Made by a program: the position numbers and the translations under genes | The notes under the pieces: generated by a model | Databases searched by the model: none | Told to the model about the DNA's origin: nothing | The model's input: the letters and a program-made list of their open reading frames with translations, nothing else | Shown here: piece after piece, positions 39,411 through 48,779 of the stretch | Position numbering within the stretch: position 1 is the first letter of the stretch | Layout of the letters: the number at the start of each line of letters is the position of its first letter | DNA from: Takakia lepidozioides | Lineage: Eukaryota; Plantae; Bryophyta | DNA length: 64,000 bases | NCBI GenBank assembly: GCA_030704615.1 | Contig: CM060733.1 | Coordinates: 15,500,001 to 15,564,000, forward strand | Direction of reading: 5' to 3'

Positions 39411-39616
39411 TGTGATGGACTAGTGGCAGCACTAGTGGTGGCTAATGGTAGCCTAGTGTTGGACTAGTGGCTGCACTAGTGGTGACTAGTGGTTGTCCAG
39501 TGGCAGCCTAGTGGTGCACTAGTGGTGCACTAGTGATAGACTAGTGTTTGGTGTGCACATATATTGTGTGGTTTGGATAGCAATGTAGTTGTGTAGCGAT
39601 ATGTATGCGCACGACA
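39411..39616. repeat. LTR-like direct-repeat block (CTAGTG/ACTAGT array plus conserved tail ending GCGCACGACA); further copies at ~30022-30197 and 48480-48655, partial at 38745-38805
   Basis: TGTG(A)TGGACTAGTG...GATGTAGTTGTGTAGCGATATRTATGCGCACGACA is seen at both ends of copy B and at the left end of copy A. Confidence 0.75.
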
Positions 39617-42600
39617 ACTGTCAAGTTATTTTACCACTAGTGTGAAGTTAGCTAGGAAATAGCTAGCTTCTATATATTGACATTTGGGATTGACCCAAGT
39701 GTCAATCCAGGGGCCAATACATGTTTGGGCACCTAGCGTTGTTATCTTCACGGCAGGTCGCGGTGGGCTCATCTTTATCGAGTTGAGCCTCACCGCGCCT
39801 AGCTATGGCGCCGTCGTGTGGATTCCCCATGGTGTGGGGTGCACTTGGCTTGACTTGTATTTGAGTGATGAGGTTATATATGCATGAGTTTATGCTTCAG
39901 CTTTGTGAGCTCGCATGAGCTTGTGCTTGTATTCTTCTTCAGATCAAGAGGCCGGGTGCAAGAGTTGCCCCATCGTTAGTCGCCGTCTTGCAACCTGTGA
40001 ACTTGAGTTTGGGATCTCGTGTATTGACTCCTATGAGATTTGACTCCTATGAGATTGGCCTCCCATGTCTTGTTAGCTGCCTCCAGTCATGTCCACTGCC
40101 ACTATCCCAAACAGTGTGGACACAACCAATCTCCGTCAGGAACCTTCTCAAGAGGTGGTGTCAAGCATCCCATATGCCAACCCCTTGAGCATCGATCACA
40201 CCTGCAGTAACATCCAGAGTCGTAGGAGCAGTCTGCTGCAAATAAACATAGTCACCAGGGCTAAACCTCCGAACCCCAGGACGATATCCTCCACCACGTA
40301 TAGTGACATACCTCAACGTATCACGGTACTGTGCAATGGCAAGGTTATCAAAAGCCATGGGCATGACTTTCTTGAACAACTTTGCACGCTGATCACATGC
40401 ACGTACCCACACGTCCAGATCGTCAAGGTTAAGGACTTGAGCAGTGTCCCTACGAATGGCTGCAGGAAAATCCGGCTCTTGGCCAAAGAGAAGGAAATAT
40501 GGTGAGAAGGAGGCAAGTGATGCTTGTTTGCTGAACATGTAGCCTATGGCTAACCAAGGAACCTGAAGATCCCAATCTCCTAGGTGTCCCTTCTGCAAGC
40601 CATACTTGCGCAAACCCCTCTTCACCGTCTGCACCACTCTCTCTGCCAAGCCATCGGCCTTAGGATGATCCCGAGAAGTGGTACGGTGGTCTATCAAGGC
40701 TTTATCACACAAAGCCTGAAACTCCCCCAAGAACTCTCTCCCTTGGTCCGTGAGTACCTCAGCTGGAGCACCAAATCGGCTAAGCACACGATCCAAGAAT
40801 GCATACGCAGCCCCCTCACTAGCCTTGTCAGGAAATGGAACCAACTCAGTCCACTTGGAGAAGTGCTCCACCATCACCAACATATATCTGTGGTGGCGCA
40901 TAGTCAGTGGCAACGGTCCTGCAAAGTCAAGACTCCACCTGTAGCCCAATCCCATGATTGGTAAAGGATGCAACTGTGGTGTAGGGGCGTTGAATGAAGC
41001 ACGCACCCTGTCACACACCATGCACCTAGCCACGAATTGTTGCACCTCTGTATGCATACCACGCCACCAATACTGCCCCTGCAGTAAATTGTGAGTGCGT
41101 CGCACTCCAAAATGCCCCAACTCCTCATGGGCATGCCGCACTAACCGTGCACGCTGTGTGGGGTGAGGAACAATTCTCACCCGACCATCCTCCCACACTC
41201 GAAGTAGGTGTATCCCCTCCCACTTGAACCTCTTGGTTTGTTGCAGGATCCGATCCCTCTCCCTGGCAGTCACAGTGGTTGCCGTGTCTCCCGTGCGGAG
41301 GTAGTCCAACACAGCCGAATCCTCATGTATATCTCTGGTACCACCTAGCTCATCACTAACCTTAGGGTCCTTAGGCACTCCGTCTACAGTCATCCCTGTT
41401 GTAAGTCCAACCTGACCTCCCGATGCCAAGATACACAAAAATGCAGATGCATGCCATCCCGGCACCATCTCCTCGTCCGTCTCACCATGCCACCGAGCTC
41501 CGGTGTCATCCTGCTGGCTCGTGCATGGATTGCGACTCAATCCATCCGCATCCCGATTGACCAAACCCGGTCGATGCACAACCTGAAAGTCATACTCCTG
41601 GAGTTTGAGTGCCCATCGTGCAAGCTTCCCCGTAAGCTTGTCTGACTCCATCAACCACTTGAGTGGCTGGTGATCCGTGACAAGGGTGAAAAGATTGCCG
41701 TATAAATAGCACCTGAAGTGTGCCACGGCCCACACTTCAGCTAAGCACTCTCCCTCATATGAGTTGTACTTAGCCTCTGCAGCATTGTTCGAGCGGCTAG
41801 CATAAGCCACTACGAATTCTCTTCCCTCATCATCCACCTGTGTGAGCACCACTCCAAGCCCCAGCATGCTCCAATCCGTATGCAGCTGAAAGGGACGCCC
41901 CCTGATAGGTCGTCTCAGGATAGGCGCCGAGGTCAACCTCACCTTTAGCTCTTGAAAAGCTCGTTCCTGCTCATCTTCCCACTGCCACTCCTAGTCCACC
42001 TTGGTCAACTTGGTTAGAGCCTTTGCAATGGTACTAAATCCCTTGACAAACCGTCTATAATAGTTTGCCAACCCCATGAAAGCTCGAACTCGGCTCACAT
42101 CCGTGGGGCGTGGAATTTGTGCAATGGCCTCTACCTTAGTCTGCTGTACCCCCAATCCTCCAGGATATATCATGTGACCCAGATACTCAATCTGGTTGTG
42201 GAAAAACTTGCACTTCCCCGGATGCAACTTCAATCCGTGCGCTCTCAAGCGCTCCAATACCACCTGAAGGTGTCTCTCATGCTCCTCTACCGTAACACTA
42301 AAGATGATGATGTCATCTATGTAGCACCGAGCAAAGTCCACCCCTGCTAGAATCCTATCCATGACTCTCTGAAACTCTGCAGGAGCAATGTTAAGCCCAA
42401 ATGGTAAGAACCGCCACTGATATAGGCAATCCTTGCCGTGCTCATTGATCCCCCAGAATGCCGTCTTCTACTTGTCCGCCTCCTTGATTGGCAACTGGTG
42501 ATATCCGGATCGTAAATCCAAAGTGCTAAAGACCTTAGCATGCCCAATGGCATCAAAGATCTCATTTGGTGTTGGCATGGCATACTTATTGGACTTGGTC

Positions 42601-47809: not shown

Positions 47810-48465
47810 AGCACAGGCCCACACAGCTCACTGGTCATAGCCGTCACAGCCCCACACAGGCCACAACCCTACACAGGTCACAGGGTCACAGCCCCACAGG
47901 CCGCAGCCTGTCACAGCCCATCACAGCCCCAAAGGCCACATGTCACAGCCCATTACAACCCCAAATGCCATAGGCACAACCTGTCACAACCCTACAATGA
48001 ACACAGGGTCACAGCCCCAAAGGCCACAGCCTGTCACAGCCCCTCACAGCCCGTCACAGCCCCACAGGCCACATGGCACAGCCTGTCACAGCCCTCACAG
48101 CCCATCACGGCGTGTCACAGCCCGTCACAGCCCCACAGGCCACAGGCCACAGCCCACCACAGCCTGTCACAGCCCATCACAGCCCCACAGGGCACAGCCT
48201 GTCACAGCCGTCACAGCCCCACAGGCCACAGGGCACAGCCTGTCACAGCCCCTCACAGCCCCACAGGCCATATGGCACAGCCTGTCACAGCTCGCCACAG
48301 CCCATCACAACCCATCACAGCCTGTCACAACTCGCCACAGCCCCACAGGCCACAGGGCACAGCCCCTCACAGCCCCACAGGCCACTGGGCACAGCTTGTC
48401 ACAACCCGCCACAGCCCCTCACAGCCCCTCACAGCCCCACAGGCCACATGGCACAGCCTGTCACA
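47810..48465. repeat. CACAGCC/TGTCACAG minisatellite (~650 bp) in the 5' region of Gypsy copy B
   Basis: Dozens of CACAGCC(C/T), GTCACAG and CACAGGC units. These produce the spurious low-complexity ORFs at 47729-48537. Confidence 0.92.
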
Positions 48466-48779
48466 TGCCTCTTTATCTTTGTGTGGACTAGTGACTGCCA
48501 TAATGGGCAGCATAATGGCAGCCTAGTGACTGACTAGTTGTAGCCTAGTCGTTGGACTAGTGGTGGACTAGTGGTATACTAGTGTGTGGTGTGCACATGT
48601 GTTGTGTGGTTTTGGACAACGATGTAGTTGTGTAGCGATATATATGCGCACGACACATGATTGGCATTGTCAGTGACAACTTATTGCTTTATGCATCTAT
48701 GTAAGCTTTGTGTGATGTGGAATCTTTGCCTCTTGTAGTGATTCCGATGAATAGATACAGAGAACAATACCAAGAAATT

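Follow-up and report, generated by a model that had tools for sequence, protein, structure and literature searches.

Is a cytosine methyltransferase carried by a moss retrotransposon a working part of the element, and on which DNA would it act? This question is raised by a 64,000-nucleotide stretch of the genome of Takakia lepidozioides (contig CM060733.1, positions 15,500,001 to 15,564,000; hereafter, the window), which contains a Ty3/Gypsy element with a C5-cytosine DNA methyltransferase (DNMT) domain. Three copies are present, all coding on the minus strand: the main element, designated copy B, and the partial copies A and C (Table 1). They were compared with database proteins (P-numbers), metagenome loci (L-numbers) and sequencing runs (X-numbers). 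Our reading, to which we assign a probability of about 0.6, is that copy B belongs to an old moss Gypsy family in which Gag, an aspartic protease (PR) and the DNMT would form a first open reading frame (ORF1) ending at a leaky stop, and in which the packaged DNMT would methylate the cDNA of the element.

As deduced from Pfam searches and sequence comparison, the minus strand of copy B encodes, between 40111 and 47016, Gag, PR, DNMT, reverse transcriptase (RT), RNase H (RH) and integrase (INT), in this order. An earlier inspection of the letters alone (the sequence-only reading) had proposed this order followed by a PHD finger; the order stands, and the PHD finger is only a half remnant in copy B, the complete domain being found solely in copy A (30670-30830; PF00628, E 1e-9). 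The Gag of the window had no Pfam match, and the protease domain PF13650, in ORF 44417-45502, scored weaker than the cut-off (E 0.0095). The methyltransferase motifs of copy B are, as had been noticed, in canonical order: I (DLFGG, ca. 44260-44243), IV (GWPCQG, with the PC intact, ca. 44000-43983), VI (ENV, ca. 43862), VIII (HRPRLWW, ca. 43745) and X (GQALD, ca. 43365); in copy A, motifs IV to X lie within one open frame. The proposed search with DNA_methylase (PF00145) gave matches both to copy B (ORF 43575-44273, E 4e-13) and to copy A (E 3e-14).

The best solved-structure match, by sequence, of a relative with 70% identity (P0005) was DNMT3A (E 4e-11), versus 0.004 for Arabidopsis-type DRM2 chains. 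Likewise, the model predicted for P0002 (pLDDT 73, pTM 0.78) matched DNMT3A/B in all the fold-search matches listed (E 1e-15 to 1e-13), and the C5-methyltransferase fold anticipated by the sequence-only reading is therefore present. With motifs I, IV (PC), VI (ENV), VIII (RxR), IX and X in linear order and a DNMT3 fold, the domain is, by sequence and model, of the DNMT3 type of C5 methyltransferases, with unrearranged motifs. We rejected its identification as a DRM enzyme, whose motifs are rearranged, on account of the canonical motif order and because the DRM2 matches are far weaker than those to DNMT3A.

Using the copy A DNMT as a query for protein relatives, we retrieved 42 proteins with up to 73% identity, including 16 from Marchantia polymorpha, two from Calypogeia fissa and three from Sphagnum; the PC motif was found in 11 of the 16 Marchantia matches. 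Scanning of metagenomes yielded 33 loci, and the order gag-PR-DNMT-RT-RH-INT-SH3-like-PHD was kept wherever those domains were present; a scan of IMG/VR retrieved no relative. Comparisons between families gave nonsynonymous divergences (dN) of 0.14-0.51, synonymous divergences (dS) near or at saturation and dN/dS ratios of 0.08-0.27 where dS was computable, a pattern indicating that the DNMT is under purifying selection across bryophyte families. Within the Sphagnum-type family the ratio was 0.48-0.72, as expected of decaying copies. In run X1, which possibly has the same source as the window, 126,289 of 3,038,600 contigs fall on the stretch, and their summed depth, which does not equal copy number, was 0.77-1.15 million over the DNMT bins versus 0.90-1.12 million over the RT, and only 0.03-0.05 million beyond 48776. 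As in X1, the family contigs of runs X5 and X6, from other studies, cover the DNMT as evenly as the RT. The moss family is old and abundant.

The DNMT is not a one-off insertion: proteins of Marchantia, Calypogeia and Sphagnum, as well as the metagenome loci, show the same domain order, which has been kept under purifying selection. We give practically no credence to a host DNMT fragment captured or nested once, given its same position in all informative loci, the liverwort and peat-moss proteins, the purifying selection and the even coverage. The sequence-only reading had staked itself on finding the DNMT in other family members, and its claim that a lineage of Gypsy elements with a DNMT survives in an embryophyte holds for the moss copies as well as for the Marchantia, Calypogeia and Sphagnum proteins.

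Profile searches with the DNMT retrieved 539 clusters (at 50% identity) with E<=1e-30, and extended the matches to Closterium, with the DNMT before the RT, and to Haematococcus, with the DNMT between RNase H and integrase. Trees of the DNMT and of RT-RH both split the PR-DNMT-RT type from the RT-RH-DNMT-INT type (SH-aLRT 97 and 99), and the Closterium matches, with PR/DNMT-RT order, fall in the same clade as the bryophyte elements in the DNMT and RT trees. Both were quick, midpoint-rooted trees, of 70 of the 84 extracted rows for the DNMT (14 near-duplicate or damaged rows and the host DNMT3/DRM outgroups were left out) and of 35 rows for RT-RH. The RT phylogeny called for by the sequence-only reading thus separated the two domain orders. 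It did not follow the hosts, and this tells against our reading: the Sphagnum-type loci join Marchantia and not the moss of the window. Descent was therefore not simply vertical, and old parallel subfamilies or transfer must be allowed for. The sister group, with order RT-RH-DNMT-INT-PHD (P0030, P0035, P0061-P0081 and others), accounts for 92 of the 150 best representatives, one of them labelled Haematococcus lacustris.

The place of the DNMT with respect to pol turned out to differ from that described earlier. In all 20 loci that hold the junction, the nearest stop upstream of the RT occupies one and the same position, with CAR-YY directly after it, and both window copies have stop-CAA-CCA at this ORF1/ORF2 boundary. 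The DNMT, which the sequence-only reading had placed inside pol, thus closes a Gag-PR-DNMT ORF1. As a background, CAR-YY follows 102 of 12143 stop triplets in the loci (0.84%). Moreover, the RT-to-PHD frame of L001, L018 and L022 continues the DNMT frame past that single stop, and many database proteins of the bryophyte clade end right after the DNMT. The leaky stop UAG-CARYYA was originally described from tobacco mosaic virus (TMV) and is also used by the retrotransposon SIRE1. The CARYYA context is cited as a readthrough signal (PMC3441728; here and below, statements on publications refer to the portions of their text available to us); as in the TMV type, the stop and CAR-YYA of our elements are in frame with a downstream ORF, but here they come after Gag-PR-DNMT, and one large subfamily has CAA-CCC. 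Since the stop and CAR-YY occur in 20 of 20 loci and in both window copies versus a background of 0.84%, the stop is likely read through to make RT-RH-INT-PHD.

Several observations on the stop pull in the opposite direction. Strict CARYYA occurs in only 4 of the 20 loci; 16 Sphagnum-type loci, which are close kin, have CAA-CCC, seven of them after TAA; the 20 loci reduce to 15 distinct insertions from about four lineages; and RNA structure downstream of the stop is inconsistent (z -0.2 to -3.2). The absence of strict CARYYA from 16 loci would fit a stop that truly terminates ORF1, with RT, INT and PHD being produced from a spliced or separately started RNA. We regard this as improbable, because ORF2 is in frame right after the stop in lineages that are only ~50% alike in the DNMT, with CAR-YY in all of them, and because relatives outside the clade (P0059, P0060, P0066, P0072-P0076) have a single continuous ORF.

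With the DNMT closing ORF1 and ORF2 reached by readthrough, the enzyme would be made at the level of Gag. We thus propose that ribosomes read through the conserved stop to produce RT, RNase H, integrase and PHD; that the DNMT, made in Gag-like amounts on the Gag polyprotein, would be packaged in the particle; and, with slightly better than even odds, that it would methylate the cDNA in or near the particle, so that new copies would arrive carrying 5-methylcytosine. At the level of Gag, the DNMT could also enter the nucleus free of particles and act after integration or in trans, methylating the insertion site or older copies and limiting the spread of the element itself, an idea listed by the authors of PMC5890265. 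The decay of the window copies could be taken as a trace of it: transitions account for 89 of the 125 differences between copies A and B, and C-to-T changes are enriched at CHG (0.09) and CG (0.06) versus CHH (0.02). However, this is what host CMT and MET enzymes would leave according to established plant methylation biology, and the bias is as expected for dead copies methylated by the host. The family is, in addition, very abundant in the host of the window, and the place of the DNMT on the Gag polyprotein favours packaging, so we consider action in trans or after integration unlikely. At 0.44-0.59, the observed/expected CpG ratio of the element is no different from that of the window background (0.37-0.51), and is therefore silent on self-methylation.

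Whether the enzyme is catalytic at all has to be weighed too, and here the evidence from the wider family is unfavourable to us. EC replaces PC in 78 of the 150 best representatives, which are distant, and in that part of the family catalysis may differ or be dispensable; besides, the DNMT of a Klebsormidium Gypsy element did not methylate yeast DNA, a result that its authors deemed inconclusive (PMC5890265). Both facts would suit a domain kept as a non-catalytic module that binds DNA or nucleosomes, or as a decoy that diverts the silencing proteins of the host. Nevertheless, human DNMT3B was likewise inactive in that yeast assay (PMC5890265), and motif I, the catalytic Cys, ENV and RxR are retained in the bryophyte clade; a non-catalytic role consequently appears rather unlikely to us, and we maintain that the packaged DNMT would act on cDNA.

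The ends of the element are not those of an ordinary Ty3/Gypsy retrotransposon. The PR-RT-RH-INT order with a DDE integrase, the TG...CA ends with a 4-bp duplication, and the polypurine tract (PPT) and priming site are all present in the family; identical direct long terminal repeats (LTRs) at both ends are absent, and the ends are instead the halves, A and B, of a permuted repeat. The complete element of L021 consists of A (~340 bp, starting with TGTCA), the coding region, the PPT, B (114 bp, ending in GACA), a two-base spacer, and again A and B. The PPT is placed directly before the first B (B1), and L008 and L010 end after a single B (A-coding-B form). All three loci with both ends show 4-bp duplications at TGTCA...GACA (AAGG in L021, CACA in L024 and ATGT in L010), the 5' end starts with A in seven distinct insertions, and contigs of run X7 show that, in the organism of the window, A can form the 5' terminus and B the 3' terminus.

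In the window itself, PPT-B-A (39368-39940) and A-end-B (48468-48655) are on the plus strand and flank the inverted coding block, and a run X6 contig connects 39374 with 39941, the two being on opposite strands. The second B (B2, 48479-48655) is 85% alike to the part of B1 at 39486-39616, and there is no target duplication at the ends of copy B next to these ~200-bp repeats. Hence the supposed LTRs of the interval 39411..48655, previously delimited as an LTR-bounded element, are B1 and B2; the copy is rearranged, and both repeats are oriented against the coding block.

We consider it probable, though not by a wide measure, that self-primed reverse transcription would create B-A at both ends and that integrase would then cut the internal B-A palindrome, GACA-NN-TGTC, in an end-joined two-repeat circle for A-coding-B-A-B and, for A-coding-B, either in linear DNA or in a circle with one repeat. 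Such self-priming is akin to that of Tf1-type elements. It would agree with an inverted match of 17 nt to the middle part of A, located after the first A (A1) in L020/L021 and in L026, which compares with a maximum of 12 in 1000 shuffles. At the A-to-B joint, moreover, contigs of the window organism carry several short sequences that differ from one another, a variation consistent with end joining. The tandem array of the 5' untranslated region (5' UTR; 47780-48467) contains many TGACA-like words, resembling the attachment motif.

This integration route also has its difficulties. The inverted match after A1 is of <=11 nt in five of the eight loci tested; the complete A-coding-B-A-B form was seen only in L021; and L010 begins only at a second TGTCA, close to where A ends, and yet is flanked by a 4-bp duplication, so that its short 5' end may reflect a cryptic attachment site or else a microhomology deletion that occurred later. 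In turn, GACA-NN-TGTC alone is not specific, because the scan also matched a DNMT coding site in Sphagnum-type loci and three unrelated window sites. The single complete form, together with the internal rearrangement of the window copy and of L024/L025, could alternatively indicate that the split repeats arose only once the element had inserted, through nested insertions or through recombination between copies with ordinary LTRs. This we find improbable, since 4-bp duplications surround the TGTC...GACA ends in three of three loci with both ends, none of the seven 5' ends carries B before A, and the same repeat layout is reported for Klebsormidium (PMC5890265). As for the rearrangements, the internal inversions of L024 (8326-8793 and 12293-13189) and of L025 are located beside terminal repeats, like that of the window, yet the 4-bp target duplication is intact; the cDNA may, for instance, have inserted into itself.

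The PHD finger had its best structural matches to those of CHD4, KDM5B/A (PHD1), ATXR5, PHF21A and AIRE. The PHD fingers of CHD4, KDM5 (PHD1), ATXR5, PHF21A and AIRE read histone H3 unmethylated at K4, and readers of H3K4me3 carry a cage Trp two residues before the His. In the PHD matches among the fetched proteins this residue is Gly in 58 of 64. It is an even chance, in our judgement, that the PHD on the integrase would read the K4-unmethylated H3 tail and steer insertion away from active promoters.

Table 1. Location of the features of the DNMT-bearing Gypsy copies in the window (UTR, untranslated region)
Feature	Position	Strand	Remarks
Copy A, DNMT motif IV through repeats	30019..34726	-	97% identical to copy B
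Copy C, integrase end, SH3-like part, partial PHD and B piece	38745..39365	-	79-81% to A and B; PHD E 9e-7
3' UTR end and PPT	39368..39409	+	same motif in L004, L008, L010, L018, L021, L022
Repeat B1	39410..39616	+	B half-repeat
B-A junction GACA-NN-TGTC, predicted internal integrase attachment site	39613..39622	.	same motif in L018, L021, L022, copy A
Repeat A, starts TGTCA	39619..39940	+	positional homologue of L021 A; at the 5' terminus of a further copy in run X7
3' UTR start, end of inverted block	39941..40110	-	motif 90% over 42 nt to L008, L010, L021
PHD finger, second half, behind ~214-bp deletion at 40201	40111..40200	-	family contigs diverge at 40201
RNase H and integrase (HHCC, D-D35-E)	40200..41990	-	RT_RNaseH E 2e-34, Integrase_H2C2 E 4e-16, rve E 1e-12, in ORF 40164-41990
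Reverse transcriptase (YIDD), broken	41994..43023	-	RVT_1 E 3.5e-24 in 41994-42467
In-frame stop, CAR-YYA context (TAG CAA CCA), ORF1/ORF2 boundary, predicted readthrough site	43018..43026	-	
DNMT3-type C5 cytosine methyltransferase domain, two frameshifts and one stop	43310..44270	-	PF00145
Aspartic protease, LLDSGA visible	44600..45150	-	40-59% to relatives
gag, including a CCHC knuckle; interrupted by a single premature stop near 46671	45790..47016	-	54% to Marchantia P0007, 45% to L001
5' UTR part, start of inverted block	47100..48467	-	family contigs cover region
Tandem array of ~10-bp units within 5' UTR part	47780-48467	-	
A end and terminal repeat B2, ends ...GACA	48468..48655	+	contigs connect 39936-39941 with 48468-48479

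Copy B is dead and rearranged, with stops at about 46671, 45505, 44419, 43605, 42470 and 41993 and frameshifts near 45520, 44238, 43580-43600 and 42613, two of them in the DNMT. Copies A and B both carry an inversion junction that is atypical of the family, being absent from other family contigs, and one common frameshift; they are therefore likely the result of a local duplication, and not of two insertions. At least two subfamilies had been suspected from a diverged fragment, and this is borne out by copy C, which is about 80% alike to A and B; its divergence from copy A (dN 0.10, dS 0.79) marks it as a separate, diverged subfamily. A chromovirus-type Gypsy fragment on the plus strand (34727-36630), with RNase H, integrase, SH3 and a chromodomain (E 7e-11), directly abuts the truncated DNMT of copy A, the tblastn matches overlapping by ~20 nt. 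Elsewhere in the window, host genes at 876-3291 and 5064-5984 (plus strand) correspond to an F-box/kelch-like gene, identified by eye, and a mitochondrial carrier gene, whose best named matches are from Ceratodon (79%) and Physcomitrium (77%), those of liverworts, a lycophyte and flowering plants being at 62-67%, which places the host among the mosses. The window contains no tRNA gene. Broken ORFs at 22823-26040 (plus strand) end in a CxC...CxH motif and are putatively SWIM-type and MULE-like. Two further repeats, one inverted (139 nt, 93%) and the other a tandem duplication (~690 bp, 80%), occur at 28725-29748 and 50999-52367.

A DNMT-bearing Gypsy element with such a repeat layout is already known from one alga (de Mendoza et al. 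2018, PMC5890265). This element, KnitGypsy-Dnmt3 of Klebsormidium nitens, resembles ours in its Gypsy domains, an unrearranged Dnmt3-related DNMT under purifying selection and a DIRS-like A-coding-B-A-B structure, the latter given in the figure legends without explanation (PMC5890265). It differs in that DNMT and RT are in one ORF according to its authors, whereas the bryophyte family has a stop in 20 of 20 loci; in addition, our hosts are land plants and a PHD is absent from the main text of that article, which treats DNMT capture as specific to the K. nitens lineage (PMC5890265). Our protein and profile searches retrieved no match labelled Klebsormidium, which does not help our case; kinship with KnitGypsy-Dnmt3 is therefore argued from architecture. 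The addition from the window is the conserved stop in a readthrough context after the DNMT. SymbioDIRS-Dnmt3, which methylates CG de novo in yeast, also has a Dnmt3-type domain in a retroelement polyprotein and split direct repeats, but possesses a tyrosine recombinase and a DIRS RT, unlike the DDE integrase and 4-bp target duplications of the window family (PMC5890265). A DIRS/PAT-type identity was accordingly discarded: such elements use a tyrosine recombinase without duplication, and ours have an rve integrase and 4-bp duplications.

Partial likenesses extend to other systems. Chlamydomonas Gypsy-7a_cRei and other algal PHD Gypsy elements have a PHD in the polyprotein, with a proposed insertion bias, but no DNMT among the domains listed, and near-ordinary LTRs (bioRxiv 10.1101/2022.06.16.496473). 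The integrase of foamy virus, also of the DDE type, cuts an internal palindrome on a two-LTR circle; there, however, the palindrome is an end-to-end junction and the normal linear form is restored, whereas here it is inside the repeat, which becomes permuted (PMC1180852). The NCGN target preference of the Phygy lineage (PMC6317226) is not matched by any of our three duplications. Finally, the host DNMT3 of non-flowering plants shares the unrearranged DNMT3 catalytic domain, and PpDNMT3b has de novo CG and CHH activity (PMC6453930); it differs, in a comparison made by description, in being a cellular gene with its own domain organisation (PMC6453930). We found no description of a DNMT-bearing Gypsy family in land plants in the literature covered, which did not extend to subscription journals, Repbase or the figures of PMC5890265, and a 2025 survey cites, in the text available, only the 2018 cases of retrotransposon DNMTs.

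The role of retrotransposon-borne DNMTs has been in question since 2018, with cases so far from algae without genetics. The family described here is present in Marchantia, where methylomes and mutants exist and where methylation papers report, in the portions available, five host DNMTs and no DNMT3. The conserved stop predicts the dosage and packaging of the enzyme, and the permutation of the ends suggests that the DDE integrase follows an unusual route of integration; A-coding-B copies, moreover, would likely be missed by LTR finders because they have no terminal direct repeats. More tentatively, and as a possibility that we would not yet favour, these elements may form a clade of DNMT3-carrying, PHD-tipped Gypsy retrotransposons that extends across the green lineage and predates land plants, and whose circular cDNA is cut within the terminal repeat for integration. 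In bryophytes, a leaky stop would then have brought the enzyme to the level of Gag, particles would be loaded with it, insertions would be methylated in advance, and the family may supply genomes such as that of Marchantia with de novo DNMT3 activity that has gone unrecognised.

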